64,000 bases of DNA, from assembly GCA_020638635.1 (NCBI GenBank), contig JACKIE010000002.1, positions 133,140-197,139 on the forward strand, in the 5' to 3' direction. This DNA comes from Planctomycetota bacterium (GTDB lineage Bacteria; Planctomycetota; UBA8742; UBA2392). Made by a program: the position numbers and the translations under genes. The notes beneath the pieces are model-generated. The model worked only from the letters and a program-made list of their open reading frames with translations. It had not been told where the DNA came from and did not search any database. Positions 13,292 through 44,265 of the stretch are shown here, in pieces; positions within the stretch are counted from its first letter, which is position 1; the number at the start of each line of letters is the position of its first letter.

Positions 13292-13313
13292 GGGGGAGGC
13301 CAAAGCCTCCCCC
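13292..13313 (-). terminator. GC-rich hairpin downstream of the 13334 gene
   Basis: GGGGGAGGC-caaa-GCCTCCCCC. The T tract on the minus strand is interrupted. Confidence 0.4.
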
Positions 13314-14038: not shown

Positions 14039-14062
14039 GGGGGAGGCGTGATCGCCTCCCCC
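14039..14062 (-). terminator. intrinsic terminator of surface-protein gene A
   Basis: GGGGGAGGCG-tgat-CGCCTCCCCC, followed on the minus strand by TTTTCATT. It lies 26 nt past the stop codon. Confidence 0.7.
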
Positions 14063-17634: not shown

Positions 17635-17658
17635 GGGGGAGGCGTGATCGCCTCCCCC
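17635..17658 (-). terminator. intrinsic terminator of surface-protein gene B
   Basis: Same hairpin GGGGGAGGCG-tgat-CGCCTCCCCC, followed on the minus strand by TTGTTTGTTTGTTG. Confidence 0.7.
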
Positions 17659-22600: not shown

Positions 22601-22624
22601 GGGGGAGGCGTGATCGCCTCCCCC
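22601..22624 (-). terminator. intrinsic terminator of surface-protein gene C
   Basis: Identical hairpin GGGGGAGGCG-tgat-CGCCTCCCCC, followed on the minus strand by TTTTTCTATC. Confidence 0.7.
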
Positions 22625-31166: not shown

Positions 31167-31337
31167 GGCGAACCAGGCAGGGGAAGGGCCGGGAGGGACA
31201 GTATAGCAGTTGATGGGGAGGCAGCTTTTCGGCAATTTCAGCGCATTCAACCGTTTCAGGATTTCCTGAAAAACTTGAACGGATTTCTTGTTTTCCACAC
31301 CCACGAAAAGCATGCTCGCCCCCCTACGGGAGAAGGC

Positions 31338-32375
31338 GTGCGGTTCAGCAACGTTCACATTGAATCTGTCGGCTATTTGCTGCCCGATCGTGTCGTGACC
31401 TCACTGGAAATCGAGGACCGGCTGGCCCCCGCCTATGAACGACTGGGGCTGCACCCCGGACGGATCGAATTGATGTCCGGCATCCGCGAACGCCGGCATT
31501 TTGAGCCGGGCACACGCCCCAGCGCGGTTGCAACCAAGGCGGCGGAGTTTGCCCTGCAGCGCGCGGGCATCGATCGCGATCAACTCGGCATCCTGATCTT
31601 CAGCAGCGTGTGCCGCGATTTCATGGAGCCGGCCACGGCCAGCGTGGTGCACGCGAACCTGAAGCTGCCGCTGGGCTGCCAGTGCTTCGACCTGTCCAAC
31701 GCCTGCCTCGGCTTCGCCAACGCCATGATGGTGGCGGCCAACATGATCGAGCTGGGCCAGGTCAAGGCCGCGCTGGTTGTCGCCGGTGAAGACGGCGGGC
31801 CGCTGGTGGAGGCGACCATAAAGCGGCTGAATGAAGACAGCAGCATCGGCCGCAAAGAAAGCAAGCTCAGCTTCGCCAGCCTGACCATCGGCTCAGGCGC
31901 GGCCGCCATGGTGCTGACGCACGCGGACCTGGCAAAACACGACCACAAGCTGCTGAGCGGCGGCATGTTGGTGGATTCCAGCGCCGTGGAGCTGTGCCAG
32001 GGCGGCGTTGTGGAAGGTGCTGCGGGGCCGCTGATGCAGACAGACAGCGAGACCCTGATGCAGGAAGGAGTGAAGCTGGCCACCCGGGTCTGGGCGGAAA
32101 CCAAGGCTGAACTCGGCTGGCAGAACAGCGATGTAGACCGCGTGTTCGCCCACCAGGTGGGCGTGATGCACCGCAAGCTGCTGTTCGAGAAGCTTGAGCT
32201 GGACCCGGCCAAGGATTTCCCGACCGTCGAGACGCTGGGGAACATCGGCAGCGTAAGCCTGCCGATCTCACTCAGCCTCGGCCTCGAGCAGGGCAAGGTG
32301 AACGCCGGCGACAACGTGGCGCTGCTGGGCATCGGCAGCGGCCTGGTGTGCCTGAACATGGGGGTGCGCTGGTGA
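31338..32375 (+). CDS. oleA: OleA-type thiolase (FabH-like 3-oxoacyl-ACP synthase III family)
   Basis: FabH-like fold with active-site FDLSNACLGF. Followed directly by oleB, oleC and oleD. GTG 31338 with RBS GGGAGAAGG is preferred over ATG 31275. Confidence 0.8.
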   Translation: MRFSNVHIESVGYLLPDRVVTSLEIEDRLAPAYERLGLHPGRIELMSGIRERRHFEPGTRPSAVATKAAEFALQRAGIDRDQLGILIFSSVCRDFMEPATASVVHANLKLPLGCQCFDLSNACLGFANAMMVAANMIELGQVKAALVVAGEDGGPLVEATIKRLNEDSSIGRKESKLSFASLTIGSGAAAMVLTHADLAKHDHKLLSGGMLVDSSAVELCQGGVVEGAAGPLMQTDSETLMQEGVKLATRVWAETKAELGWQNSDVDRVFAHQVGVMHRKLLFEKLELDPAKDFPTVETLGNIGSVSLPISLSLGLEQGKVNAGDNVALLGIGSGLVCLNMGVRW

Positions 32376-33394
32376 CCACCACTGAACAGGCGCGCCCCTT
32401 CACGGGCATCTGGGAACGCGAATACCCCTTCGCGTCGAACTGGCTCGACCTCGGCGAGGCGCGGCTGCATTACATCGATGAAGGGAGCGCTGGCTTCCAG
32501 CCGGCATCCGCCTTGGACGTCCCGTCCAAGGCTCGGGGCGTGAGACAGAGGCCAACGCCGAATGCAGGCGGGACGCCTGCGCTCCTGTTCCTGCACGGCA
32601 ACCCGACCTGGAGCTTCTACTGGCGCCACCTGGTCGAGGCCTTCCGGCCCACCAACCGATGCGTCGCCCTGGACCACATGGGCTGCGGCCTCTCCGACAA
32701 GCCCCAGTTCTACCCCTACACCCTGGCCCAGCACATCGAGAACGCCCGCGCGCTGGTCTACAAGCTTGACCTGCGCGACATCGTGCTGTGCGTCCACGAC
32801 TGGGGCGGCGCCATCGGCATGGGCCTGGCTGCGCAGATCCCGGACCGCATCAAAGGCTTCGTGGTGTTCAACACGGCCGCGTTCCCCAGCCGGCGCATGC
32901 CTTTGAGTATTGGCCTGTGCCGCCTACCGGGCTTCGGCGCGTTCGCGATCCGCGGCCTGAATGCTTTCGTGCGCGGTGCACTTGCGCGTTGCGCGAAGAA
33001 GCCGCTGTCAGCCGAAGCCAAGGCCGGCTACCTGGCGCCCTACAGCAACTGGGACGACCGCGTGGCCAACCTGCGCTTCGTGCAGGACATCCCGATGGAC
33101 ACGGGCCACGAGAGCTGGCCGACGCTGCAAGCCGTGGAGGCCGGCCTCGCGCAGTTCAAGCAGCACCCGATGCTGCTGTGCTGGGGCCGCCACGACTTCG
33201 TGTTCAATGACTCGTTCCTGCACGAGTGGCAGCAGCGCTTCCCGCAGGCGGAAACACAGTACTTCGAAAACGCCGGGCACTTCGTGGTGGAGGACGCCCG
33301 CAACGAGATCATAGCGGCCATGAAACGGTTCCTCGCGGGCGAAGAGCAGACCTACACGGACGAGCACCACTCTTCGGTCAACCTGCACGCATGA
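32372..33394 (+). CDS. oleB: OleB-type alpha/beta hydrolase (haloalkane-dehalogenase-like beta-lactone decarboxylase family)
   Basis: FLHGNPTWSFYWRH and VHDWGGAIG (Asp nucleophile). The GTGA overlap with the oleA stop suggests start 32372 (alternative 32348). The N-terminal region contains a REPIN-derived insert. Confidence 0.8.
   Translation: MTTTEQARPFTGIWEREYPFASNWLDLGEARLHYIDEGSAGFQPASALDVPSKARGVRQRPTPNAGGTPALLFLHGNPTWSFYWRHLVEAFRPTNRCVALDHMGCGLSDKPQFYPYTLAQHIENARALVYKLDLRDIVLCVHDWGGAIGMGLAAQIPDRIKGFVVFNTAAFPSRRMPLSIGLCRLPGFGAFAIRGLNAFVRGALARCAKKPLSAEAKAGYLAPYSNWDDRVANLRFVQDIPMDTGHESWPTLQAVEAGLAQFKQHPMLLCWGRHDFVFNDSFLHEWQQRFPQAETQYFENAGHFVVEDARNEIIAAMKRFLAGEEQTYTDEHHSSVNLHA
32483..32585. 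repeat. REPIN/MITE-like palindromic element inside the oleB coding sequence (in frame)
   Basis: GGGAGCGCTGGCTTCCAGCCGGC...GGACGtccCGTCC...GCAGGCGggaCGCCTGCGCTCC. Same family as 39844-39943 and 40188-40289. Translated as GSAGFQPASALDVPSKARGVRQRPTPNAGGTPAL. Confidence 0.7.
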
Positions 33395-33408
33395 GAAAAG
33401 GACACGGC

Positions 33409-33837
33409 ATGAACCGCAAAGAACCGCAAAGGACCGCGAAGAAAGACCTTGGGGATGACTTGCTGCTGAAGGAAGAAGTCTACGCCGTGATCGGCGCAGC
33501 GATCGAGGTGCATAAAGAGTTGGGACACGGCTTTCTGGAAGGCGTGTACGACGAGTGCTTCGGCTACGAGATGGAAGACAGACACGTTCCGCACGTAGCC
33601 CAACCAGAAGTGGAGATTCGGTACAAGCGCAGGCGCTGCAAGAAGAAGTACGTCCCAGATTACCTTTGCTTCGGCGAGATCGTGGTCGAGATCAAAGCAA
33701 TCAAGGTGCCGACAGAAGTCGAGGAAGCCCAGCTGATCAATTATCTACGGGCGACGGGCAAGCCTGTCGGTCTGCTCATGAACTTCGGAGCACGAGGGAA
33801 ACTGGAGTGGAAACGCATCGCACTGACGAAGGCGTAG
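33409..33837 (+). CDS. GxxExxY family protein (PD-(D/E)XK-like)
   Basis: GFLEGVYDE motif and the EIKA..KVPTEVEEAQLINYLRATGKPVGLLMNFG core. Wedged between oleB and oleC. Confidence 0.85.
   Translation: MNRKEPQRTAKKDLGDDLLLKEEVYAVIGAAIEVHKELGHGFLEGVYDECFGYEMEDRHVPHVAQPEVEIRYKRRRCKKKYVPDYLCFGEIVVEIKAIKVPTEVEEAQLINYLRATGKPVGLLMNFGARGKLEWKRIALTKA
33412..33441. repeat. left 30-bp inverted repeat of the GxxExxY cassette
   Basis: AACCGCAAAGAACCGCAAAGGACCGCGAAG, made of three decamer units. It is the reverse complement of 33841-33870 with 29/30 matches. Confidence 0.85.
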
Positions 33838-33840
33838 TTC

Positions 33841-33870
33841 CTTCGCGGTCCTTTGCGGTTCTTAGCGGTT
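33841..33870. repeat. right 30-bp inverted repeat of the GxxExxY cassette
   Basis: CTTCGCGGTCCTTTGCGGTTCTTAGCGGTT. It starts 4 nt after the cassette stop codon and ends 8 nt before the oleC ATG. Confidence 0.85.
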
Positions 33871-33877
33871 AATCAGC

Positions 33878-35647
33878 ATGACTATCAGTGAAGCAGAGCT
33901 GCCGGTTGCACGTGCTACCTCGGTCCAGGCCGTGGCGCCGCGCTGTAACGTCAGCGACTTCATCTTCGAGCAGGCGAAGCAGCGCCCTGAACAGGCGGCC
34001 GTGATCGAGCATGCCACTGGCCGTCGCGTCACCTACGCCGAGCTGGCAAAACGCATCGAGAACATCACCTTCGGCCTGACCCAGCTTGGCATCTGCAACG
34101 GCGCGCGCACGGTGTTCGCGATCAAGCCGGGCATCGAGTTCGTCGAGACCGTGTTCGCCTTGTTCCGCGCCGGGGCCGTGCCTGTGGTGGTCGATCCCGG
34201 CATGGGCGTGGATAACATGCTCAAGTGCATCGAGGAAGCTCAGCCCACGGCGCTGGTTGGCATCCCGATGGCGCACATGCTGAGCAAGCTGAAGTCCCGT
34301 GCCTTCCGCAGCGTGAAGCAGCGCGTCACTGTTGGCCGTCGCTGGCTGTGGGGCGGCGCCAGCCTTGATGAACTGCGCGCGCGCAACGTAACGGGCGCAC
34401 AGGCCGCACCCACCACGGCCGAAACCACGGCCGCGATCCTGTTCACATCAGGCGCGACCGGCGTGCCCAAGGGCGTGGTGTTCCGCCAAGGTGTGTTCGT
34501 CGGGCAGACGGAGATGATCCGCGATGCCTACGACATCCAGCCCGGCGAAGTTGACGTGCCGTGCTTCGCACTGTTCGCGCTGTTCAGCGTGGCGATGGGC
34601 GTGACCATCGTGCTGCCCGACATCGATTTCTCGAATCCCGGCAAGGCCAGCCCTGCCAAGGTGGTGGACGCCATCAACGCCCACCACGCCACCATGAGTT
34701 TCGGCTCTCCGGCCGTGTGGAAGCGCGTGGGACCATACCTTGAGCAGACCGGCGTGACGCTGCCGACAATCAAGCGCATCCTGATCGCGGGCGCGCCGGT
34801 GCCATTCACGACACTGGCAATGTTCAAGGGCAAGCTCGCGCCCGAGGGCGACCTGCACACGCCTTACGGGGCCACGGAGTCGCTGCCCTTCAGCACCATC
34901 AGCGCGAGCGAGATCCTGGGCGAGACGCGGCTCGACACCGCCAACGGCGCAGGCACCTGCGTGGGCAAGCCGCTGCCCGGTGTGAACGCGAAGGTAATCC
35001 GCTTTGTGGACGGACCGATTGCGAGCCTTGATGACGCCGAAGAGCTGCCGACCGGCGAAGTCGGCGAGATCATCGTCAACAGCCCGGTGACCACACAGGA
35101 GTACTTCAACCGGCCGGAGAACAACAAGCTCGCCAAGATCCGTAGCGCAGGCGTCCCGCCTGCACAGGGCACGGCCGCCCCGCCCGTGCCAGAATCTCTC
35201 GGGCACGGTGCCCGCGATAGCGCGCGGCTCTGGCATCGCATGGGCGACGCCGGCTACTTCGACGCGAACGGCCGCCTGTGGTTCTGCGGCCGTGTGAATC
35301 ACCGCGTGGAAACCGCAAACGGCACAATGTGGCCGATCCGCGTAGAGGCCATCTTCAACAACCACGACGCCATCAGCCGCTGCGCGCTGGTGGGCCTGGG
35401 CGACCGGCCGAACCAGGTGCCCTGCATCGTGATCGAGTTGCACGACGGCCACATCCCCGAGAAAGACCTGCGCGAGCGCATCCGTAGTGAACTGCAGCGC
35501 ATGGCCGACGCCCACGAGCTGACCCGCGGCATCCGGTACTTCCTGTTCCATGAAGGCCTGCCCGTGGACGTGCGCCACAACGCCAAGATCAACCGAGAGG
35601 CCCTGAAGCACTGGGCCGATACCCAACTGCCTGAGGTGACGCAATGA
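33878..35647 (+). CDS. oleC: OleC-type AMP-dependent synthetase (olefin beta-lactone synthetase family)
   Basis: AMP-binding motif LFTSGATGVPKGVV, plus YGATE and WHRMGDAGYFD. Positioned in the ole operon. Contains a 30-aa REP-derived insert. Confidence 0.85.
   Translation: MTISEAELPVARATSVQAVAPRCNVSDFIFEQAKQRPEQAAVIEHATGRRVTYAELAKRIENITFGLTQLGICNGARTVFAIKPGIEFVETVFALFRAGAVPVVVDPGMGVDNMLKCIEEAQPTALVGIPMAHMLSKLKSRAFRSVKQRVTVGRRWLWGGASLDELRARNVTGAQAAPTTAETTAAILFTSGATGVPKGVVFRQGVFVGQTEMIRDAYDIQPGEVDVPCFALFALFSVAMGVTIVLPDIDFSNPGKASPAKVVDAINAHHATMSFGSPAVWKRVGPYLEQTGVTLPTIKRILIAGAPVPFTTLAMFKGKLAPEGDLHTPYGATESLPFSTISASEILGETRLDTANGAGTCVGKPLPGVNAKVIRFVDGPIASLDDAEELPTGEVGEIIVNSPVTTQEYFNRPENNKLAKIRSAGVPPAQGTAAPPVPESLGHGARDSARLWHRMGDAGYFDANGRLWFCGRVNHRVETANGTMWPIRVEAIFNNHDAISRCALVGLGDRPNQVPCIVIELHDGHIPEKDLRERIRSELQRMADAHELTRGIRYFLFHEGLPVDVRHNAKINREALKHWADTQLPEVTQ
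35142..35231. repeat. REP-like hairpin cluster inside the oleC coding sequence (in frame)
   Basis: GTAGCGCAGGCGtccCGCCTGCAC, GGCACGG..CCGTGCC and CGGGCACGGTGCCCG. The first 60 nt are collinear with the left end of the RAYT element (42383-42440). Translated as RSAGVPPAQGTAAPPVPESLGHGARDSARL. Confidence 0.65.
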
Positions 35648-36723
35648 AGGCAGTGGTGACAGGCGGCGCCGGTTTCCTGGGCGCGAAGATTGGTCAGCGT
35701 CTGCTGCAGCGCGGCGACGAAGTAACAATCATGTCCCGCTCCGCAAGCAGGCATTCCGCGCCGCACGCAGGCGCACGTGTGGTTGATGCCGACCTGCGCG
35801 ACGCAGACGACGTCGCCCGCGCGCTCGAAGGTGCCGACGCGGTCTTCCACGCCGCCGCCAAGGCCGGCGTGTGGGGCCCGCGGGCGGAGTACTTCGGCAT
35901 CAACCTGGCCGGCACGCGCAACGTGCTGGCCGCCTGCCACAAGCACGGCGTGCAAGAGCTGGTCTACACCAGCACGCCCAGTGTGGTGTTCGAGCGCGGC
36001 GGGATTGACGGTGGCGACGAAACGCTGCCCTACCCGAAGAAGTTCCTCACCCATTACGCCGAATCCAAGGCTCTGGCCGAGCAGGAAGTGCTGGCCGCCA
36101 ACGGCGTGCACGGCCTGCGCACGGTGGCCCTGCGCCCGCACCTGATCTGGGGCGCGGGCGACCCGCACCTTCTTCCGCGTGTGCTGGAGCGCGCGCGCGA
36201 GGGCAAACTCAAGCAGGTCGGCGACGGCCGCAACCGCGTGGACATCACCCACGTGAACGACGCCACCGACGCCCACCTGCTGGCGCTTGAGCACATCGAG
36301 CGCGCCGCGGGCAAGGCCTACTTCATCAGCAGCGAAACGGTCGAGTTGTGGCCCTGGCTCAATTTCGTGCTGGAGCGTTCGGGAGTCGCGAAACTCAGCG
36401 CGCAGGTCAGCGCGGCCACGGCTTATCGCGCCGGCGCGGTGATGGAGTTCGTCTGGCGCCTGCTGGGTATCGGCAGCGAGCCGCCGATGACGCGCTTTGT
36501 GGCCGAGAACCTGGCGACTTCGCACTGGTTCAGGCTGGATGCAGCTAAGCGCGACCTCGGCTACCAGCCCCGCTGGACGGGCGCAAAAGCGCTGGACGAG
36601 TATTTCGGTAACGGCCCCGCCATCACGGGTGGGGAAACAACCCTGGATAGTGATCTGGGCTCTGACTCCCCCGGCCTGCCGGCCGGGGCTGAGGGAGCGC
36701 TTCAGGAGCAACGCCATGGATAA
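35644..36723 (+). CDS. oleD: OleD-type NAD(P)-dependent reductase (3-beta-HSD/epimerase family)
   Basis: VTGGAGFLG Rossmann motif and YAESK (YxxxK). ATGA overlap with oleC. Confidence 0.85.
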   Translation: MKAVVTGGAGFLGAKIGQRLLQRGDEVTIMSRSASRHSAPHAGARVVDADLRDADDVARALEGADAVFHAAAKAGVWGPRAEYFGINLAGTRNVLAACHKHGVQELVYTSTPSVVFERGGIDGGDETLPYPKKFLTHYAESKALAEQEVLAANGVHGLRTVALRPHLIWGAGDPHLLPRVLERAREGKLKQVGDGRNRVDITHVNDATDAHLLALEHIERAAGKAYFISSETVELWPWLNFVLERSGVAKLSAQVSAATAYRAGAVMEFVWRLLGIGSEPPMTRFVAENLATSHWFRLDAAKRDLGYQPRWTGAKALDEYFGNGPAITGGETTLDSDLGSDSPGLPAGAEGALQEQRHG

Positions 36724-37351
36724 TGTGCTACGCGAACACCTGATGACGTTCGAGACGTTCTTCTCGGCCATCGGCTTCAAGTCGCGGCTGGGCAAGGTGT
36801 GGGGGCTGCTGGCGCTGGCCGGCAAGTCGCTCAGCGCCGCGGACATCGCCAACGAGCTCGACATGAGTGCCGGCTCGGTCAGCGAATGTCTGTCCGAATT
36901 GCGCGAGTGGGGCGCAGTCACCAGCGAATTCTCAAGCGAACACCGCTGTCAGATGCACAGCGCGGTCAGCGACACCATGAGCATCGTGACCACCGTACTG
37001 CGCCGCCGCGAGCAGCTGGCCGTGCAGAACTTCAAGGACAACGCCCGCAGCGCCCTGCAGTACGTGACCGAGCGCTACGGCAGCAACGACGCCCGCGTGC
37101 ACACACTGCAGAGCATCGTGACGACTAGTGAAATTGCCGAAGCCACCATCCAGTTCTTCGTGGCCGCCAGCAGCGCGGTTCCCAAGAACGACGAGTCGCG
37201 CCTGGCCCGCGTGGTCAAGCGCATGGCCGCCATCGGCATGAAAATGCCCGGCGAGATCAACAAGTTCCGCAACGGCCGTCGTAAGACCGGCCAGCTGAAC
37301 GGCAACGCCACCTCGGCGCCTGTGGAAGAAGCGGAGGACGCCCATGTATAG
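36716..37351 (+). CDS. GbsR/MarR-type winged-helix transcriptional regulator
   Basis: ATG 36716 overlaps the oleD stop by 8 nt. KVWGLLALAGKSLSAADIANELDMSAGSVSECLSELREWGAV is HTH-like. Confidence 0.7.
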   Translation: MDNVLREHLMTFETFFSAIGFKSRLGKVWGLLALAGKSLSAADIANELDMSAGSVSECLSELREWGAVTSEFSSEHRCQMHSAVSDTMSIVTTVLRRREQLAVQNFKDNARSALQYVTERYGSNDARVHTLQSIVTTSEIAEATIQFFVAASSAVPKNDESRLARVVKRMAAIGMKMPGEINKFRNGRRKTGQLNGNATSAPVEEAEDAHV

Positions 37352-38579
37352 CCTTCCGCGCGTGGTGATCACCGGCGTCGGCCTGACCGCGCCCAACGGC
37401 AACAACCTGGCCGAGTTCCGGCAAGCTTTGCTGCAGGGCAAGTCGGGCGTGCAGCCCTACGAAATCCGCTATTTCGGCAAAACCCTGGCGGGCATCTGCA
37501 ACTTCGAGGCCACCCGCTACCAGAAGCGCAAGGACCTGCGCCGCGGCACCCGCGCCGGCAGCATCAGCATCTACTGCGCCCACGAGGCGCTGAAAGACGC
37601 GGGCATCGGCTGGGATGGCGTTGACAAGTCAAGGGTCGGCGTATACGTCGGCACCACCGAGCACGGCAACGTCGAGACCGAGACCGAGATCTACGAGGTC
37701 AGCAAGCAGAACTACAACCTCGATTTCTGGACCCACCACCACAACCCGCGCACAGTGGCCAACAACCCGGCCGGCGAGGTGACGCTCAGCCTCGGCATCA
37801 CCGGCCCGGCCTACGCCATTGGTGCGGCCTGCGCGGCCGGCAACCTGGGGGTGATCCACGCCACCCAGATGCTGCAGCTGGGCGAGGTGGACCTGGCGTT
37901 CGGTGGCGGCGTCAGCGAGAGCATTCACACCTTCGGCATCTTCGCCGGCTTCAAGCAGCAGGGCGCGCTCGCGCACCGTGAAGACCCGACCAAGGCTTCG
38001 CGCCCCTTCGACAAGGCCCGCAACGGCATCGTAGTCGCCGAAGGCGGCTGCCTGTACACGCTGGAGCGCCTGGATGACGCGCTCAAGCGCGGCGCGAAAA
38101 TCTACGCCGAGATCGCCGGCTGGCACGTCAACAGCGATGCCAGCGACTACGTGCTGCCGAATTCCGAGCGGCAGATGCAATGTATGCGCGCCGCCATCAA
38201 ACGCGCAGGCATGCAGCCCGGTGACGTTGACATCGTCAACACCCACGCAACCAGCACGCCCAGCGGCGACGAAATGGAAGCCGCGGCCGTCAACGCCGTG
38301 TTCGGTGACTACGACGGCGTGCACGTCAACAACACCAAGAGTTACATCGGCCACGCCATGGGTGCCGCGGGCGCTTTAGAGCTGGCCGGCAACCTGCCCA
38401 GCTTTGAAGACGGCGTGGTGCACCCGACCATCAACATCGATGAGCTGGACCCGGAATGCGCCGTGCGCGGCCTGGTGATCAACCAGCCCAAACAGGCGGG
38501 AGAAGTGAAGACCATCATGAACATGAGCTTCGGCATGCTGGGCATTAACTCAGCGCTGATCGTGAAGAAGTACGAATAG
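37344..38579 (+). CDS. beta-ketoacyl-ACP synthase I/II family (FabF/FabB-like)
   Basis: Cys-His-His triad contexts AIGAACAAGN, NTHATSTPSGD and KSYIGHAMGAAG. Overlaps the regulator stop by 8 nt. Confidence 0.9.
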   Translation: MYSLPRVVITGVGLTAPNGNNLAEFRQALLQGKSGVQPYEIRYFGKTLAGICNFEATRYQKRKDLRRGTRAGSISIYCAHEALKDAGIGWDGVDKSRVGVYVGTTEHGNVETETEIYEVSKQNYNLDFWTHHHNPRTVANNPAGEVTLSLGITGPAYAIGAACAAGNLGVIHATQMLQLGEVDLAFGGGVSESIHTFGIFAGFKQQGALAHREDPTKASRPFDKARNGIVVAEGGCLYTLERLDDALKRGAKIYAEIAGWHVNSDASDYVLPNSERQMQCMRAAIKRAGMQPGDVDIVNTHATSTPSGDEMEAAAVNAVFGDYDGVHVNNTKSYIGHAMGAAGALELAGNLPSFEDGVVHPTINIDELDPECAVRGLVINQPKQAGEVKTIMNMSFGMLGINSALIVKKYE

Positions 38580-38580
38580 A

Positions 38581-38646
38581 GCCCCGGCCAGTTCGCGAAG
38601 CGAACGTGCCGCAGGAACGCACTGCGTTCCGAGGATGGCCGGGGGC
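38581..38646. repeat. composite REP-like palindromic element (intergenic)
   Basis: Outer stem GCCCCGGCC/GGCCGGGGC enclosing GTTCGCgaaGCGAAC and GGAACGCactGCGTTCC. Confidence 0.6.
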
Positions 38647-38695
38647 GAAGGGAACAACAAACAACGCCCGCAAGGGCACAACCAAGGAAGAAGCA

Positions 38696-38959
38696 ATGAC
38701 AGACGAAATGATCAAGCAGGCCATCATCGGGATCATCAACGACATCAACCCCGACGAGGACACCAGTAACATCGACGCGGCCACGCGCCTGCGCGACCAG
38801 CTCGACCTCGACTCGATGGACTTCCTCGACATCGTGATGGAGCTGCGCAAGCGCTACGGCGTGCACGTGCCCGACACGGACTACGAGCACCTCGCCAGCC
38901 TCGACAGCTGCGTGAACTACCTGCGCGACAAGATGGCCGGCAAGGAACTGGTGTCGTAG
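38696..38959 (+). CDS. acyl carrier protein
   Basis: 87 aa. The LDLDSMDFLDIV motif carries the phosphopantetheine Ser. RBS AAGGAAG. Confidence 0.85.
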   Translation: MTDEMIKQAIIGIINDINPDEDTSNIDAATRLRDQLDLDSMDFLDIVMELRKRYGVHVPDTDYEHLASLDSCVNYLRDKMAGKELVS

Positions 38960-38963
38960 TCGC

Positions 38964-39033
38964 CAGTTGTCAGTTGTCGGTTGTCAGCGGCAGCGCTGAG
39001 CCCGGTAAACTGACAACTGATAACCGACAACTG
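38964..39033. repeat. long imperfect hairpin with arms built from heptamer tandem repeats (empty cassette-like)
   Basis: Arms are CAGTTGTCAGTTGTCGGTTGTCAG and CTGACAACTGATAACCGACAACTG. As RNA the 24-bp stem has 1 mismatch and 2 G-U pairs, with a 22-nt loop. Confidence 0.75.
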
Positions 39034-39039
39034 AAAACC

Positions 39040-40605
39040 ATGTCCCACTATGACGCCATCATCATCGGTGCGGGGATGTCCGGCCTGGCGGCCGGCATCC
39101 GTCTGGCCATGTACGACAAGAAGGTTGTCGTGCTGGAGCGTCATTACGTGTGGGGCGGGCTGAACTCGTTCTACCAGTTTCAGGGGCACCAGTTCGACGT
39201 GGGCCTGCACGCTATGACGAATTACGCCCCGCGCGGGGCCAGGGGCCTGCCGCTGACGCGGTTGCTGAAGCAACTGCGCATCCGCTGGGAAGAGCTGGAC
39301 CTGCACCAGCAGGGCCACAGCGCGGTCAGCTTCCCGGGCCTGAAACTGAATTTCAGCAATGACTTCGAGCTGCTGCGCAGCGAAATCGCCCGCGCATTCC
39401 CGGGGCAGATCGACGGCTTTGATGCATTGACGCGTCAAGTGCGTGGCTACAACGAGTTTGACCTCAACGCGCCCACGCTCAACGCCCGCGAGATCGTGGA
39501 GTCGCACACCACCGACCCCGTGCTGGCCGACATGCTGTTCTGCCCGCTGATGTTCTACGGCTCAGCCCGCGAGAACGACATGGACTGGGACCAGTTCGTG
39601 GTGATGTTCAAAAGCATCTTCTTCGAAGGCTTCGCAAGGCCGCAGGCAGGCGTGCGGCATATTTTAAAACTGCTGATTGATCGCTATCGCAGGGCCGGCG
39701 GCGAACTGCGCCTGAAAGCCGGCGTGTCGCGCATCATCACCGACGGCCAACGCGCCACCGGCGTCGAGCTAGACAACGGCGAAACCCTCACGGCCGACAA
39801 CGTGCTGTCGTCAGCGGGACTTGTGGAGACAGGGCGACTGGTAGGGAGCGCCGGCCTCTGGCCGGCAGATGCCGTGGACGTTCCGTCCACGGCGGGCGCG
39901 GACAAAATGTCCGCGCAGCAGGCCGCCGGGACGGCGGCGCTCCGTGGCAAACTCTCCTTCACAGAAACCATAAGCGTGCTGGACAAACCCGCGCGCGATC
40001 TGGGCATCGAAGAGACCATCATCTTCTTCAGCAACACCGAGCGCTTCAACTACGCGCAGCCCAATGACCTGTGCGACACCAGCAGCGGGGTGATCTGCAT
40101 GCCCGGCAACTTCAACCTGCCCCGGCAGCCCAAAGACCACCTCGTGCGCATCACCAACATCGCCAACTACGACAAGTGGGCGGCGCTGGGGAGCGCCGGC
40201 CTCCGGCCGGCACATGCCGTGGACGTCACGTCCACGGCTGACGCGCACAGGATGTCCGCGTCGAAAGCCGGCCAGAGGCCGGCGCTCCCGTACTACGAAG
40301 CCAAGCAGCACTGGTATGCGCGTTCCTGCGACGACGTGCTGAGCCACATCCCGGATTTCCGGCCGTACGTGTCGCTAGTGGACATGTTCACCCCTCGCAC
40401 GATACGGCACTACACCGGCCACGAAGGGGGCGCCGTGTACGGCAGCCCGCTCAAGAAGCGCACCGGCGAGAGCGGCGTGGAAGGCCTCTACATCATCGGC
40501 ACCGACCAGGGCTTTTTAGGCATCATCGGCGCCATGCTGAGCGGCATCAGCATGGCCAACCGCTGGGTACTTCAACGCGACAACGCAGCGGTGGAGACAA
40601 CATGA
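39040..40605 (+). CDS. NAD(P)/FAD-dependent oxidoreductase, phytoene-desaturase (CrtI)-like, with two REPIN inserts
   Basis: [20 protein letters not shown] dinucleotide-binding motif. The C-terminal [17 protein letters not shown] region is typical of the amine-oxidase/CrtI fold. Confidence 0.8.
39844..39943. repeat. REPIN/MITE-like element in CDS (in frame), copy 1
   Basis: GGGAGCGCCGGCCtctGGCCGGC..GTGGACGttcCGTCCAC..GCGCGGACAaaaTGTCCGCGC..CGGCGGCGCTCC. Translated as [33 protein letters not shown]. Confidence 0.75.
40188..40289. repeat. REPIN/MITE-like element in CDS (in frame), copy 2
   Basis: GGGAGCGCCGGCCTCCGGCCGGC..GTGGACGtcaCGTCCAC..GCCGGCCAGAGGCCGGCGCTCCC. It is 102 nt, or 34 codons. 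Translated as [33 protein letters not shown]. Confidence 0.75.
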
Positions 40606-42116
40606 CGACTGATCAGCAACAACAGGGATTCAACCTCAAGGCCGAGGGCAAACGCGTGCTGCGCGGCTCTTCGGGCGGGCGCTTGCAGCAGAAAGCCAAC
40701 CCCGTCGAGAAGGCCAAGGGCGAATACGACGTCATCGTGATCGGTTCCGGCCTGGCCGGCCTTACCGGCGCCAACGTGATGGCAACACAGGGTTACCGCG
40801 TCTGCCTGCTGGAGCAGCACTACAACTACGGCGGGCTCGCCACCTGGTTCAAACGGCCGGGCGGGCACATCTTCGACATCTCCCTGCACGGCTTCCCGGT
40901 CGGCATGGTGAAGTCCATGCGCCGCTATTGGTCGAAAGAGATCGCCGACAGCATCGTGAAGCTCGAAAGCATCAAGTTCGACAACCCGCAGTTCAGCTTC
41001 GAAACCGAGTTCACCCGCGACGACTACACCAACAAGGTCGTGCAGGCCTTCAACCTCGACCGCGCGCACGTCGAAAGCTTCTACAACTACCTGCGCAAGA
41101 TGGAGTATTACAACAACGACGGCACGACCACCGGCGAAATGCTCGAACGCTTCTTCCCCGGCCGTAACGACGTGCACCGCGCGTTCATGGAGCCGATCAC
41201 CTACGCCAACGGCAGCACGCTCGCCGAGCCCGCCATTACCTACGGCATCGTGTTCAGCAACTTCATGAGTAAAGGCGTCTTCACCTTCAGCGGCGGCACG
41301 GACCAGCTGATCATGAAGATGCGCAAGATTCTCGCTGCCAATGGCGTGGACATGTTCAGCGGCGCCCAGGTCGAGCGCGTGCTGGTGAAAGACGGCCGCG
41401 TGGCCGGCGTCCGCGTCAACGGCCGCGAGATCAAGGCCCGCAGCGTGCTCAGCAACGCCAACATCAAGTCCACGGTGTTGAAGCTGGTGGGGGAAGAGAA
41501 CCTCAAGCCCGACTTCATTGAGCAAACCAGGGCCGTGCGCCTGAGCGGCAGTAGCTGCCAGGTCTACATCGGCATCAAGCAGGGCGAGGAGATCCCTTTC
41601 ATCACGGACCTGCTGTTTTGCAGCACAGCCGAGCGCTTCACCAGCGAAGAGCTGTGCGACCTGCGCACGAAAAGCCGCACCTTCAGCTTCTATTACCCCA
41701 AGACACGGCCGCACCTGCCGAACGCGGGCTACACAATCGTCAGCAGCAACAACGCGCGCTGGCAGGATTGGCAGGGGCTGGATGAGGTCGAGTACGAGCG
41801 CGAAAAGAATGCGCTGATCGAGCGCACGCTGGATCACCTGGAAAAGTACATCCCGGGCGTGCGCGAGAAGATTGACCACGTCGAGGCCAGCACGCCGCGC
41901 ACCTTCAACTTCTATACGCAGCAGATGCAGGGGGCCAGCTTCGGCACCAAGTTCGAAGGCCTTGACGTGTCAATGAAGCTGAGCGAGCACGTGCCCGGCC
42001 TGTACCACGCGGGCAGCGTCGGCATCATCATGTCCGGCTGGCTCGGCACCGTGAACTACGGCGTGATCACCGCCAACAAGATGGCCGAATACCTGCACGT
42101 GGCGAAGGCGAAGTGA
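40602..42116 (+). CDS. NAD(P)/FAD-dependent oxidoreductase, phytoene-desaturase (CrtI/CrtD)-like
   Basis: [20 protein letters not shown] and [11 protein letters not shown] motifs. ATGA overlap with the upstream paralogous-fold gene. Confidence 0.8.
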
Positions 42117-42143
42117 TGCGGGCGCCCCGCCCGCGGCAGCCCT

Positions 42144-43406
42144 ATGAGTGACGCCCTCGAACAAGTGAAAGCCCGCATTCCGCACCGGGAGCCGTTCCTG
42201 TTCGTGGACCGCATCCTCGAGCAGGGGCAAGGCCGCATAGTCACCGAAAGAATTGTGCGCGCCGACGAGCCCCAATTCCAAGGCCACTATCCCGGCAGCC
42301 CACTGATGCCCGGCGTGCTGCTATGCGAAGCCTGCTTCCAGACCGGCGCCATGCTGTTGAGGAGCGCAGGCGCCTTGGCCCGTAGCGCAGGCTCCCAGCC
42401 TGCACAGGCCGTGGGCGCCCCGCCCACGGCACCCCCAGAATCAGCTTTCGCTCCAATCGACCCCCGAGTCATGAAACGCCATCGAGGCTACCTTCCGCAC
42501 TGGGAGCGCGAGCACGCAACCTACTTCGTAACCTTCCGGCTGGCGGATTCGCTGCCGGCCGATGCCCGCAAGCGCATTGAGGACCAGCGCTACGACATCG
42601 TAAAGACCGCCGAACACCTGAACCGGCCGCTGACGGATACCGAGCGTGAACGGCTGGATCAGCTCTATTCAGTCACCTTCGATGAACTGCTGAACGTCGG
42701 TCACGGAGCATGCCACCTGGCGAACGCCGACTGCGCGGCCGTCGTCGCTGAGACGCTCACGAAGTGGGACGGCGAACGGTATGCGCTGTACGCCTGGTGC
42801 GTGATGCCGAACCATGTGCATGCAGTGTTTCGGCCGTTTGCGGGGCAGGCGCTTGGCGAAATTCTCCATTCGTGGAAGTCGTTTACGGCCAAGGCGTGTA
42901 ACAAGCTGCTCGGCCGCACGGGTGAATTCTGGCAGCGGGAGTCGTTTGACCGCTTGATCCGCGACCGTGAGGAGTTTGACAAACGCGTGCGCTACACGGT
43001 TGAGAATCCGGCTGCGGCGGGCCTGGTGGGCTGGAAGTGGGTTGGTGGGAGTGCCGTGGACGGGGCGTCCACGGCCGGTGCAGGCGAGGCGCCTGCGCTA
43101 CGGGGTGCAGGCGAGACGCCTGCGCTCCCGACTGCGGGTGAGGCGCCCGCATCACCAACTGCTGCGGGCGAGGCGCTCGCATCACCAACTGCTGCGGGCG
43201 AGGTGCCCGCATCACGGCGCAAGCCGGTGCTTACTCGCATCCTGGAGGCTAAGTTCCGGGGCATGGTGGTGCCGGGGGACGTCCTGCGCGTTGAAGTTGA
43301 GCAGGAAGAAAAAATGGGTGACGCCTTCGTCATGAACGGCAAAGTGTCCTGCGCGGGCAAGAACGTCCTGCGCGTGAAGTTCATCGTGGCGATGATCGAA
43401 CTGTAG
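42144..43406 (+). CDS. FabZ/FabA-like hot-dog dehydratase interrupted in frame by a REP-RAYT element (420-codon continuous ORF)
   Basis: Residues 1-72 ([40 protein letters not shown]) plus residues 358-420 ([21 protein letters not shown]..) make a full-length FabZ. Residues 73-357 are mobile-element derived. Confidence 0.8.
42360..43214 (+). mobile_element. REP-associated tyrosine transposase (RAYT, IS200-like Y1) unit with inverted REP pairs
   Basis: Internal ATG at 42471. Motifs RGYLPHWE and [15 protein letters not shown] motif is NHVHAV. The Tyr context is RYTVENP. Left REPs at 42361-42405 are the inverse of right REPs at 43078-43129 (GGAGCGCAGGCG..GTAGCGCAGGC..GCCTGCAC). Confidence 0.8.
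43131..43217 (+). repeat. 3 x 30-nt tandem repeat of hairpin units (GCTGCGGGCGAGGCGCYCGCATCACCAACT)
   Basis: Read directly from the sequence. Translated in frame as ([10 protein letters not shown])-like decapeptides at the junction back into fabZ. Confidence 0.8.
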
Positions 43407-43428
43407 GGGCGGCCCGCGGGGAACAACA

Positions 43429-44265
43429 ATGGCACTGGTGAACACGGATTTCCTTGACCTGCGCAGCAAGAACGTCGTCGTCATCGGCGCGGCGAACAAG
43501 AAGTCCGTGGCCTGGATCACTGCCCTCACGCTGGAAGAAGCCGGCGCGCGCGTCACCCACATCGTGCGCGACGAAGAGCGCAAGGCCGAAGTCGCCCAGC
43601 TCATCGACAAACAGCGCGGCCTGCACGGGGGCGGCATCAAGGAAGTGTTCACCTGCAACGTCGAGTCGCAGGAAGAAATCGACGCGGTCGCCAAGGCGGT
43701 GGGGGAAGCGCGCGGGCCGATCCACGGCCTGGTGCACAGCATCGCGTTTGCCAACTATTCCGAGGGCATGAAACCCTTCCACGAAACCAACCGCGAAGAC
43801 TTCCTGCAGGCCGTGAACATCAGCGCCTTCAGCCTGGTGGCCCTGGCGCGCGCCTTCAAGCCCTACCTCGACGACTCCGCCGCCGTGGTCACCATCGGTA
43901 TCAGCACCACGCGCATGGCCGCGGAAAACTACGGCTACATGGCGCCGATCAAGGCCGCGCTGCACTCCAGCGTGGTGTTCCTGGCCAAGAGCTTCAGCGC
44001 CGACACCAAAATCCGCTTCAACGCCGTGTGCCCCGGCCTGCTGAAAACCAGCGCCAGTGCGGGCATCCCCGGCTATCTCGACAGCTACCTGTACGCCGAG
44101 CAGGCGACCCTGCGCAAGCAGGCCGTGAGCACGCAGGAGGTGGCGAACGCGGTTGCGTTCCTGCTCAGCCCGCGCAGCAGCGGCATCAACGCGAATGAGC
44201 TGGTAATCGACGCCGGCATGGGCGTGAACTATTTCGACAAGTCGATCATCGAGAAGATGAAGTAG
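43429..44265 (+). CDS. enoyl-ACP reductase, FabI-like SDR
   Basis: [54 protein letters not shown] matches the FabI Tyr/Lys layout. Confidence 0.85.

Follow-up and report, generated by a model that had tools for sequence, protein, structure and literature searches.

RAYTs are textbook 'domesticated' single-copy transposases, and both their benefit to the host and their mode of persistence are debated. The RAYT considered here lies within the reading frame of another gene, a FabZ-like dehydratase gene of a Planctomycetota bacterium, which raises the question of whether transposase and dehydratase are made as one protein or separately, or whether the gene is simply broken. The window (the whole 64-kb stretch of DNA analysed) carries this ORF at 42144-43406 on the + strand; it encodes 420 aa in a single frame without an internal stop codon, as an earlier note on this DNA had reported.

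Anatomy of the interrupted gene

The features of the locus, numbered by window position, are:

42113..42136, + strand: REP-B copy (GTGATGCGGGCGCCCCGCCCGCGG) in the intergenic spacer upstream of fabZ, inverted relative to the array at 43132-43221
42144..42359, + strand: N-terminal half of the FabZ-like dehydratase (aa 1-72), to the end of the central hot-dog helix
42360..42479, + strand: left REP-encoded linker (aa 73-112), with a non-conserved in-frame ATG at 42471
42361-42378: degenerate REP-A copy, left linker
42382-42405: GTAG-footed REP-A hairpin, left linker
42408-42430: left RAYT-proximal hairpin
42480..43067, + strand: core of the RAYT, a Y1/HUH tyrosine transposase (aa 113-308), without its own stop codon
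43046..43131, + strand: right REP-A block, mirroring the left block
43053-43075: right RAYT-proximal hairpin, with covariation
43078-43101: inverted REP-A copy, right, ending in CTAC (the reverse of the GTAG foot)
43105-43128: second inverted REP-A copy, right
43132..43221, + strand: REP-B array of three tandem 30-nt units (CTGCGGGCGAGGCGCCCGCATCACCAACTG; 92% matches), read as 10-residue repeats when translated
43215..43406, + strand: C-terminal half of the FabZ-like dehydratase (aa 358-420 and the stop codon), supplying the beta-sheet strands with which the hot-dog fold closes

The two dehydratase halves (aa 1-72 and 358-420) match Pfam FabA (3.5e-21) and TIGR01750 (1.3e-27, in two stretches), which bears out the proposal that they form one FabZ/FabA hot-dog between them. 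Pfam FabA and TIGR01750/NF000582 match the N-terminal half at aa 6-77, and the second stretch is seen both in HMM matches and in matches to FabZ sequences of the PDB. Catalytic His48 (GHYPG) and Glu62 (LCEAC) are intact in the N-terminal half and align with the E. coli FabZ motifs. Scores fall below the equivalog cut-offs (TIGR01750, 96.4 vs 155 bits; NF000582, 96.2 vs 113 bits) and the gene is located in a specialised lipid cluster, not in an lpx/fab operon, so 'FabZ-like' is the best name. No second copy of FabZ or of the RAYT was found within the 64-kb window.

The insert (42360-43214) is 855 nt long, or 285 codons, and is a complete REPtron, comprising a RAYT gene and flanking inverted REP hairpins. 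It is on the same strand and in the same frame as its host, as first described, with no stop codon in that frame against 8 and 12 in the other two. Both transposase motifs noted earlier are present: the HUH motif NHVH at 42810-42821 (aa 223-226, within NHVHAV at aa 223-228), and catalytic Tyr284 within RYTVENP (aa 283-289; 42990-43010), which is a Y-x-x-x-N-P context. HUH motif and tyrosine are kept in all aligned chimeras, P0141 reading YVLDNP. The proposed HMM comparison gave real matches that lie under the curated cut-offs (NCBIfam REP_Tyr_transpos, 67.6 vs 80 bits, E 1e-18, profile positions 27-137 of 146; Pfam Y1_Tnp, 22.3 vs 23 bits, 1.5e-4); identification rests on the motifs, the homologues (6996 for the RAYT) and the predicted fold. 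In the structural model the low scores fit a two-helix insertion of about 45 aa after the first strands, which the HMM models lack.

The junction residues of the insert vary (R/S/G/A on the left, R/K/H/S/T on the right), and the ORF has no Pfam match to a Hint/intein domain. No target-site duplication was found at the junctions apart from L020/P0126, in which a GAMLL block (15 nt with 3 synonymous differences) is duplicated and the native loop of the empty allele P0006 is kept; this reads as independent acquisition or inter-allelic recombination, and not as a classical duplication.

REP hairpins and linkers

Two REP families surround the RAYT. The two complete hairpins described earlier on the left are accompanied by an additional degenerate REP-A copy; on the right the inverted REPs and the 3x30-nt repeat are both present, the repeat belonging to the second family, REP-B. 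The inverted arms (42379-42437 and 43046-43104) extend over 59 nt with 88% complementarity and have tetranucleotide feet, GTAG at 42382 and CTAC at 43098-43101. Matches to the REP patterns number 4-8, compared with 0.00-0.01 expected by chance in shuffled sequence. Inverted REP hairpins flank the RAYT on both sides in every locus, the layout being repeated at 11 further loci. The proximal hairpin is 99.3% paired, with compensatory changes at 7 of 10 pairs, a result reached by 0 of 500 shuffles; the REP-encoded linkers drift as protein while the hairpins are preserved through such changes.

The 64 kb of genome covered by the window has 5 further sites with REP-A-type copies, none of them more than 11 kb from the RAYT. 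The motif GTAGCGCAGGC(3-5)GCCTGCAC is found in at least 120 metagenome contigs. Neighbouring genes in the window carry short in-frame intragenic REP inserts; in the related locus L086, two of the genes nearby appear to be broken where REPs lie, either genuinely or through faulty assembly.

Conservation, selection and predicted structure

The FabZ::RAYT layout recurs in at least 36 distinct related Planctomycetota protein clusters (E <= 1e-80). The insert occupies an identical loop position in 19 aligned chimeras, and in GTDB species representatives each of the nine close orthologues has its FabZ sequence interrupted after residue 72, in agreement with the placement of the insertion just after the central hot-dog helix. 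Eight of the nine consist of one open ORF each, and L013, the remaining one, contains an assembly gap. The genome scan was seeded with a spliced-FabZ alignment, a mixed alignment of chimeras, FabZ-only and RAYT-only sequences being unsuitable as a seed, and all compared sequences are MAG or metagenome assemblies.

Among the window, L086, L088 and L006, dN/dS is 0.10-0.14 for FabZ, 0.085-0.13 for the RAYT and 0.23-0.90 for the linkers; the same pattern is seen across 10 loci, with RAYT dN/dS of 0.09-0.26. The FabZ half downstream of the insert has a dN/dS of 0.03-0.22 among insert-bearing orthologues, indicating purifying selection. In most pairs of these four loci FabZ and the RAYT have similar dS values (0.29 vs 0.38; 1.04 vs 0.87); for L086-L088 the values are 0.23 and 0.12. 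This co-divergence within the type-A lineage (one of two RAYT types found at the loop) points to long residence.

An AlphaFold2 model of the 420-aa product has a pLDDT of 82.9, above 90 in the hot-dog and RAYT parts and below 50 in the linkers, including aa 81-95 of the left linker. In the model the hot-dog is closed, the RAYT folds on its own and the linkers are disordered, so that prediction favours the hot-dog closing across the insert, a point the earlier note had raised: it superposes on solved FabZ structures across the insert with a TM of 0.85-0.90 (Foldseek). Among PDB entries the predicted model best matches 4er8_A, in which the E. coli RAYT is bound to a REP hairpin (Foldseek, E 3.5e-7, target TM 0.63).

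One protein or two

Translation of the REPtron as an internal domain within the FabZ-like host protein is probable and, taken as a whole, the best explanation of these observations. The element sits in the surface loop that follows the central helix of the dehydratase, a cluster-specific protein of FabZ type, and the whole 420-codon ORF would most likely yield one polypeptide. Its two FabZ halves would fold as a normal hot-dog domain, to which the RAYT would be tethered as an independent domain by two disordered Gly/Ala/Pro-rich linkers encoded by REPs. That the host tolerates the insertion and that the fusion is expressed, both suggested previously, are supported by the breadth of protein clusters, the constraint on the downstream FabZ half and the closed fold of the model. 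Both moieties may be active. The RAYT is not required for FabZ function, because insert-free orthologues exist, and it is probably still active on REPs, since its catalytic residues and the DNA hairpins are kept.

By hitch-hiking in this way, the RAYT would obtain its expression from the host gene, and selection for a working dehydratase would purge frameshift and stop variants, keeping the transposase ORF open. REP units of 27 and 30 nt would let the arrays grow and shrink with the frame unbroken. Such coupling of transposase ORF integrity to host gene function is offered as a mechanism of persistence.

The earlier note also considered a very recent disruption, in which a RAYT landed by accident in a gene that is now a fresh pseudogene and its frame is open only by GC-rich chance. 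GC-rich sequence has few stops, 92 stop-free linker codons are expected by chance at about 0.09, and REP elements do land in genes of this genome; yet 285 stop-free codons in a random frame have a chance of only about 6e-4, the in-frame chimera is found in 36 protein clusters and 9 species-representative genomes, and synonymous divergence between chimeras runs from 0.1 to >2 (saturation) with the frame open throughout. Both the RAYT and the FabZ half beyond it also evolve under purifying selection; the comparative data refute an accident of this kind, which has almost no chance of being the explanation. Another alternative is a separate RAYT product started at ATG 42471, in which case the FabZ frame would have no importance or no function left and the host gene would contribute no more than transcription. 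In its favour, the ATG does lie where it was reported, 9 nt (three codons) before the first codon of the conserved RAYT core, and stand-alone relatives start at a similar distance. The residue at this position varies among chimeras (Ile, Val, Thr, Phe, Leu), however, and the RAYT of the window, unlike a stand-alone gene with its own start and stop, has no stop before that of fabZ. A stop codon follows the RAYT in none of the chimeras but is present in the one stand-alone copy checked at the DNA level, and other stand-alone relatives terminate shortly after the core. No internal promoter, terminator or known RNA family was found within the gene on the + strand, which is weak evidence as regards promoters because the scan does not cover those of Planctomycetota. 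A separate product would also leave the strong conservation of the downstream FabZ half unexplained; an internal start is not supported and is very unlikely.

Long retention under purifying selection at a fixed position in the protein would also be expected if the RAYT were no longer a transposase and had been exapted as a structural or regulatory domain of a lipid-pathway dehydratase. Against this, catalytic HUH and Tyr residues are present in every copy, compensatory change maintains the flanking DNA hairpins despite drift in the encoded peptides, some near-identical fabZ alleles have no such domain or hold another RAYT lineage, and the same RAYT family is found inside unrelated hosts; exaptation is accordingly judged improbable. 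A further alternative is a DNA-level switch, in which excision and re-insertion of the REPtron would be frequent enough to be useful and fabZ would be alternately interrupted and restored, the in-frame state being incidental. In its favour, Y1 transposases of the IS200/IS605 family excise precisely, occupied and empty alleles are scattered among one another on the FabZ tree, and two alleles, L006 with the RAYT and L082 without, have 100% identical left-flank DNA and a right flank differing by one base. But L082 retains REP sequence and presents no clean empty site, every occupied allele compared is in frame, which off/on switching does not need, and RAYT and FabZ have diverged together in the type-A lineage, so that a switch, too, is unlikely to underlie the arrangement.

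Turnover at the fabZ loop

Near-identical fabZ alleles hold a RAYT of type A, a RAYT of type B, REPs only (as in L082) or nothing; the window fabZ is 96% identical both to P0132, which holds type B, and to P0001, which has no RAYT. On the FabZ tree, types A, B and 'none' are intermingled; like the RAYT tree, it is a neighbour-joining tree of short sequences without support values. Between the window and the type-B allele L084, dS is 0.16 for the C-terminal half of FabZ and 1.21 for the RAYT. In one MAG (HKST-UBA84) a type-B-like RAYT that stands alone, starting at an ATG and ending at a TGA of its own, co-occurs with a FabZ::RAYT-A.

The interspersed types and the dS mismatch between the window and L084 led to rejection of a single ancient insertion with strict vertical descent as the whole story, although the sequences indicate that vertical descent does hold within the type-A sub-lineage. 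The REP-B array of the window (43132-43221) is read as what is left of a type-B element that occupied this site earlier: its right junction is the same as in L084, the left edge of L086 carries a REP-B remnant, and REP-B remnants flank the type-A element in the window, L086 and L088. The window lineage thus most likely has a type-A REPtron nested within the remains of an older type-B element. L082 was considered as a simple deletion from an L006-like allele and rejected, the order of its REP pieces fitting no single deletion; it is left as a REP-mediated rearrangement.

The earlier note had proposed defining the empty site from orthologues, and had named orthologues with the segment but no REPs as a sign of a conserved domain and not an insertion. 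The comparison gave an outcome it did not foresee: orthologues carry the segment together with its REPs and presence/absence is polymorphic, with empty alleles among them, so on the alleles compared the loop is both a conserved feature and a mobile insertion. It is a long-lived but dynamic nest for RAYT lineage A or B, for REP remnants, or for nothing.

Relatives inside other host genes

The earlier note took RAYTs to be stand-alone intergenic genes, a premise that, judged from its homologues, does not hold for the clade of the window RAYT. Half of the best 150 RAYT cluster representatives (75/150) are fused or embedded, 40 of them internally, a share that may be inflated if cluster representatives favour long members. 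Hosts whose Pfam domains continue on both sides of the RAYT include AlaRS, ValRS, LeuRS, UvrA, CarB, PdxA, MenF and others, and DNA methylases are likewise among the longer ORFs that host RAYT relatives. The alaS::RAYT gene lies in the context recA-alaS-rpmF-plsX and has 50-nt inverted arms.

These hosts suggest a broader reading, towards which the balance tips only slightly: that this RAYT clade has adopted an intein-like niche without splicing, its REPtrons residing in frame inside conserved, often essential genes (the FabZ-like gene, alaS, valS, leuS, uvrA, carB, pdxA, menF and DNA methylases) and being translated as internal domains on flexible REP linkers. The elements would gain expression and protection from decay, because a frameshift, stop or imprecise deletion would kill the host gene, and REP lengths in multiples of three would be part of the adaptation. 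If true, a bacterial transposase would be living in a manner not recognised before; no published description of an in-frame, host-embedded RAYT lifestyle was found in the literature. The predicted chimeras would be natural proteins (a dehydratase, aminoacyl-tRNA synthetases, UvrA) joined to an ssDNA nuclease/ligase domain, and natural maps of sites that tolerate domain insertion.

Comparison with known elements

REPtrons consist of RAYT (TnpA-REP) genes with inverted REPs or REPINs (Nunvar, 2010; Bertels and Rainey, 2011; Ton-Hoang, 2012; structure 4ER8), and RAYTs have been classified (PMC5581495; PMC6006769), with the Y-x-x-x-N-P signature tabulated in PMC6006769. The window element resembles them in its HUH and Y-x-x-x-N-P motifs, predicted RAYT fold and inverted GTAG-footed hairpins, in having matching short REPs elsewhere, and in being a low-copy gene at one conserved locus across species. 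It differs in that this locus is the interior of another gene's reading frame, that the RAYT has no stop or conserved start and appears to be translated as an internal host domain, and that two RAYT lineages alternate at the site. IS200/IS605 TnpA proteins share the HUH/Tyr chemistry and recognition of subterminal DNA hairpins; unlike these (Y-x-x-x-Q), the window RAYT has Y-x-x-x-N-P, no tnpB and REP flanks rather than IS ends, and is not seen in multiple near-identical copies.

Inteins and homing endonuclease genes are likewise selfish genes in frame in conserved, often essential hosts, sporadic among close relatives, with element integrity coupled to host fitness. The fabZ insert, unlike inteins, has no Hint/splicing domain and has variable junction residues, and would be expected to remain in the mature protein; its enzyme belongs with the Y1/HUH ssDNA transposases and not with the LAGLIDADG or HNH endonucleases.

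Known intragenic palindromic repeats are the Rickettsia RPEs and the GTAG/CGTC REPs that lie within genes of, among others, Opitutus terrae and Thauera (Di Nocera et al., 2013; PMC3733652). The shared feature is the in-frame insertion of GC-rich palindromic repeats into loops of working proteins, UvrA and tRNA synthetases among them, and genes next to fabZ in the window are a case in point. RPEs and intragenic REPs are short, of non-coding origin, and add 20-80 aa, whereas the fabZ insert includes a transposase, a folded enzyme of about 190 aa; its linkers and the inserts in neighbouring genes fit the intragenic type, but the whole insert with its enzyme domain does not. The fabZ element would thus extend REP-decorated proteins from short peptides to a whole enzyme domain.

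Annotation of such genes is a problem: public records name the chimera genes only 'transposase', and the main RAYT survey explicitly discarded long 'fusion' proteins as fusions or annotation errors (PMC6006769).

Structure of the FabZ::RAYT ORF

The FabZ::RAYT ORF lies in a window of 64% G+C and is matched to FabZ/FabA in two stretches, residues 1-72 and 358-420 (Pfam FabA, 3.5e-21; TIGR01750, 1.3e-27; PDB FabZ chains, down to 5e-17), which retain the catalytic His48 and Glu62 of FabZ. The insert between these halves is free of stop codons when read in the fabZ frame (the other two frames contain 8 and 12) and codes for a Y1/HUH transposase with NHVH at amino acids 223-226 and Tyr284 within RYTVENP. 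The insert is a complete REPtron: the RAYT gene is bracketed by 59-nt inverted arms that are 88% complementary, and two REP families are present, REP-A, a GTAG-footed REP of pattern GTAGCGCAGGC-loop-GCCTGCAC, and REP-B, a 30-nt unit of pattern GCGGGCGAGGCGCCCGC-ATCAC. The REP-A, REP-B, and hairpin patterns occur well beyond chance (0.00-0.01 matches expected).

Features of the FabZ::RAYT locus (window coordinates)
42113-42136: REP-B, one inverted copy directly upstream of fabZ
42144-43406: FabZ::RAYT ORF, single frame, 420 codons
42360-43214: insert between the FabZ halves, 855 nt (285 codons)
42379-42437 and 43046-43104: inverted arms, 59 nt each
42382-42405: REP-A, left
42408-42430 and 43053-43075: RAYT-proximal hairpins, 23 nt, one per arm
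43078-43101 and 43105-43128: REP-A, right, two inverted copies
43132-43221: REP-B, three tandem 30-nt units after the right REP-A block

The split FabZ in a single 420-codon frame, the stop-free insert, the intact transposase motifs, the REP hairpins on both sides, the inverted REP pair, and the 3x30-nt repeat described in the earlier note are all borne out; its RAYT assignment holds with a reservation, in that RAYT models match the insert clearly (NCBIfam REP_Tyr_transpos, E 1e-18) but slightly below curated cut-offs.

In an AlphaFold2 model built from a 148-sequence alignment (mean pLDDT 82.9), residues 1-80 and 357-420 are predicted to close into a hot-dog fold (pLDDT > 90), as the earlier note had wondered, with TM 0.85-0.90 to solved FabZ structures in alignments that cross the insert. 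Residues from about 105 to 305 (pLDDT > 90) have as their best PDB match 4er8_A, the structure of the E. coli RAYT in complex with a REP hairpin. The REP-encoded parts, residues 81-95 and 311-356, have pLDDT < 50; the prediction is of two independent domains linked by flexible tethers.

Conservation and hairpin upkeep

The closest homologues of the RAYT part of the protein (55-73% identity) are 350-385-aa proteins with FabA and Y1_Tnp domains, and in 19 aligned homologues the RAYT sits at the identical place, in frame, with the left border ...CFQTGAMLL. A whole-protein search of NCBI, JGI, ENA, and Logan assemblies yields 36 distinct 90%-identity clusters at E <= 1e-80; the NCBI label for the chimeras is merely "transposase". 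Scanning species-representative genomes with a spliced-FabZ profile recovers nine close FabZ orthologues (65-86% identical), each in a MAG labelled "Planctomycetota bacterium" and each interrupted after residue 72; in eight, an open frame that crosses REPs, RAYT, and REPs joins FabZ-N to FabZ-C, and the ninth (locus L013) has an assembly gap. All sequences compared come from MAGs or metagenomes; an assembly artefact is very unlikely because independent short-read and long-read assemblies agree. The alignment to orthologues suggested in the earlier note gives a mixed answer: relatives carry the same in-frame segment with REPs on both sides, and RAYT-less fabZ alleles also exist.

Hairpins flank the RAYT on both sides in every locus. 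The proximal hairpin is 99.3% paired (n=14 copies), with compensatory double changes at 7 of its 10 pairs; none of 500 shuffles matches this pairing and covariation, and slid registers fall to 28-50% paired. The DNA hairpins are thus kept despite lying in coding sequence. The unit lengths of REP-A (27 nt) and REP-B (30 nt) are both multiples of three, and REP arrays vary from 1 to 6 units between alleles with the frame intact. The REP-A motif is found in at least 120 metagenome contigs; about one third of the copies among the matches listed lie deep within coding-like frames, as judged by a rough test based on ORFs and GC3.

Selection, translation, and alternative explanations

Pairwise dN/dS was estimated on codon alignments (Nei-Gojobori). 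In the unsaturated type-A set (the window, L086, L088, and L006), dN/dS is 0.10-0.14 for FabZ (dS 0.23-1.15), 0.085-0.13 for RAYT (dS 0.12-1.07), and 0.23-0.90 for the REP-encoded linkers; across ten loci it is 0.03-0.22 for the FabZ half downstream of RAYT and 0.09-0.26 for RAYT. By these ratios FabZ and RAYT are both under selection and the linkers are without it. The dS values of the two parts are similar in most type-A pairs, which indicates their co-inheritance within this set. Among aligned chimeras there is no stop codon and no conserved internal Met; together with the constrained downstream FabZ half, this argues for translation of the entire ORF.

The reading with most support is that the REPtron, lying in frame, is translated as a domain within FabZ, in line with the tolerated insertion or fusion proposed earlier: selection on the dehydratase would keep the frame open, and selection on RAYT itself would maintain its own function. 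The very recent disruption also considered in the earlier note, an accidental insertion that happens to stay open in a GC-rich frame, is refuted by the chimera's presence in 36 clusters and nine orthologous genomes and by purifying selection on both parts. Its other proposal, an internal-start RAYT product, here taken as a separate protein alongside a dead FabZ, is contradicted by the missing stop after RAYT, the non-conserved start, and the constraint on the downstream FabZ half.

Exaptation of the RAYT domain for a host role is unlikely, given that catalytic residues and DNA hairpins are retained, near-identical alleles do without the domain, and the same RAYT family occurs in unrelated hosts. 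Since all occupied alleles are in frame, there is no need to invoke an on/off switch at the DNA level; excision may nevertheless be ongoing at the site.

Turnover at the fabZ site

Two RAYT lineages occupy the same fabZ loop: type A (YFVTFRLAD and FWQRESFDR, REP-A flanks) and type B (YFVTWRLAD and FWMDESFDR, REP-B flanks). In neighbour-joining trees, which carry no support values, each embedded type forms one RAYT clade, with the B clade sister to a stand-alone RAYT group, and types A, B, and "none" (alleles without RAYT) are intermixed in nearly every small FabZ clade. The window FabZ is 96% identical to that of a type-B allele (P0132/L084), whereas the RAYTs are merely 65% identical (dS 0.16 for FabZ_C, 1.21 for RAYT); it is also 96% identical to an allele with no RAYT (P0001/L083). 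Between L006 (RAYT-A) and L082 (REPs only, 164 aa), the left-flank DNA is identical and the right flank differs by one mismatch. By these comparisons the fabZ loop site turns over.

The type-A REPtron sits between REP-B remnants in the window, L086, and L088, and the right junction of the insert in the window matches that of the type-B allele L084, which points to a nested insertion of type A into an older type-B element. In L020/P0126, the native loop of an empty allele (P0006) is kept after the insert, with a duplicated GAMLL block before that loop, a pattern that suggests either recombination between alleles or an acquisition of its own. The MAG of L020, which carries FabZ::RAYT-A, also holds a conventional type-B-like RAYT that stands alone, starts at an ATG and ends at a TGA of its own, and has different REPs. 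The route of turnover may be either REP-targeted transposition or homologous recombination via the very conserved fabZ flanks.

RAYTs within other host genes

The RAYT core was searched against 1.84 billion cluster representatives. Longer ORFs contain 75 of the best 150 matches, a share that is not unbiased since cluster representatives may favour long members, and in 40 of the 150 the RAYT is preceded by 100 aa or more and followed by 60 aa or more. By Pfam (proteins P0258-P0370), host domains are split by the RAYT or present on both its sides; the hosts include alanyl-, valyl-, and leucyl-tRNA synthetases, UvrA, DinG-like helicases, CarB, a MurC-Ddl fusion, PdxA, MenF, a MenD-like enzyme, GcvT, GH38 mannosidases, and several DNA methylases and type ISP/MmeI-like enzymes. 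REP-like peptide repeats border these inserts. For one case, alaS::RAYT (P0261; L210 3001-6699), the DNA was examined: the gene has housekeeping neighbours (recA-alaS-rpmF-plsX-fabH-fabD) on a contig of 600 kb, and 50-nt inverted arms enclose the RAYT (5309-5358 and 5991-6040). Judged from these matches, in-frame embedding is general for this RAYT clade, and the earlier premise that RAYTs are normally stand-alone and intergenic does not hold for it.

RAYT/REP systems are well established, as is their vertical inheritance at a single locus (PMC5581495, PMC6006769). In-frame intragenic REPs are known too, uvrA and genes for tRNA synthetases among their sites (RPEs of Rickettsia and GTAG REPs of Opitutus terrae; PMC3733652); the literature search found no account of the RAYT gene itself lying in frame within a gene of the host. 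Inteins are the closest analogy in way of life, but FabZ::RAYT is without a splicing domain (Pfam).

Recurrent C-terminal fusions occur in other metagenomes, in which the host stop is missing and the frame continues into RAYT: S-adenosylmethionine (AdoMet) decarboxylase-REP linker-RAYT and YacG-REP linker-RAYT (P0205, P0218, P0222, P0223, P0232, P0217).

Genomic neighbourhood

The cluster at 31275-44265 encodes a FabH/OleA-like thiolase, an OleB-like hydrolase, an OleC-like AMP ligase, and an OleD-like 3beta-HSD reductase, then a MarR-like regulator, KAS, ACP, two CrtI-family FAD oxidoreductases, FabZ::RAYT, and a FabI-like SDR. The set resembles a pathway to olefins or specialised lipids, with Ole names denoting resemblance in domain content. 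No REP-A-type copy in the 64-kb window is more than 11 kb away from the RAYT. Four further REP-derived in-frame inserts near fabZ read as SAGxxPA...AVDVxST...AGxxPAL peptides; their sites are also occupied in L086 and L082, with diverged REP sequence.

REP-derived inserts in neighbouring genes (window coordinates)
32473-32590, 35140-35200, 39845-39945, and 40190-40290: hosts are the OleB-like alpha/beta hydrolase, the OleC-like AMP ligase, and a CrtI-family FAD oxidoreductase (twice)

In L086, a locus on the 2.45-Mb contig of a close relative, the OleC-like gene is in two pieces and the first FAD oxidoreductase is truncated, exactly at their REP inserts (1079-2849 and 6249-7547); the breaks reflect either genuine decay of these genes at the REPs or assembly/consensus errors in hairpin-rich sequence.

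Between the OleB-like and OleC-like genes, the C-terminal end of ORF 33226-33837 matches PDDEXK_3 (PD-(D/E)XK nuclease family); orthologous clusters contain other small inserted genes (GIY-YIG in L086, NTP_transf_2/Polbeta in L082), and in chimera P0252 FabZ::RAYT is preceded by a fused PDDEXK_3 domain. Selfish genes seem to be drawn to this gene cluster.

An identical 24-nt GC-rich hairpin, GGGGGAGGCGTGATCGCCTCCCCC, lies past the 3' end of each of three large consecutive minus-strand ORFs (14039-14062, 17635-17658, and 22601-22624; variant at 13292-13313); it belongs to a family distinct from REP-A and REP-B and is possibly a terminator or another REP.
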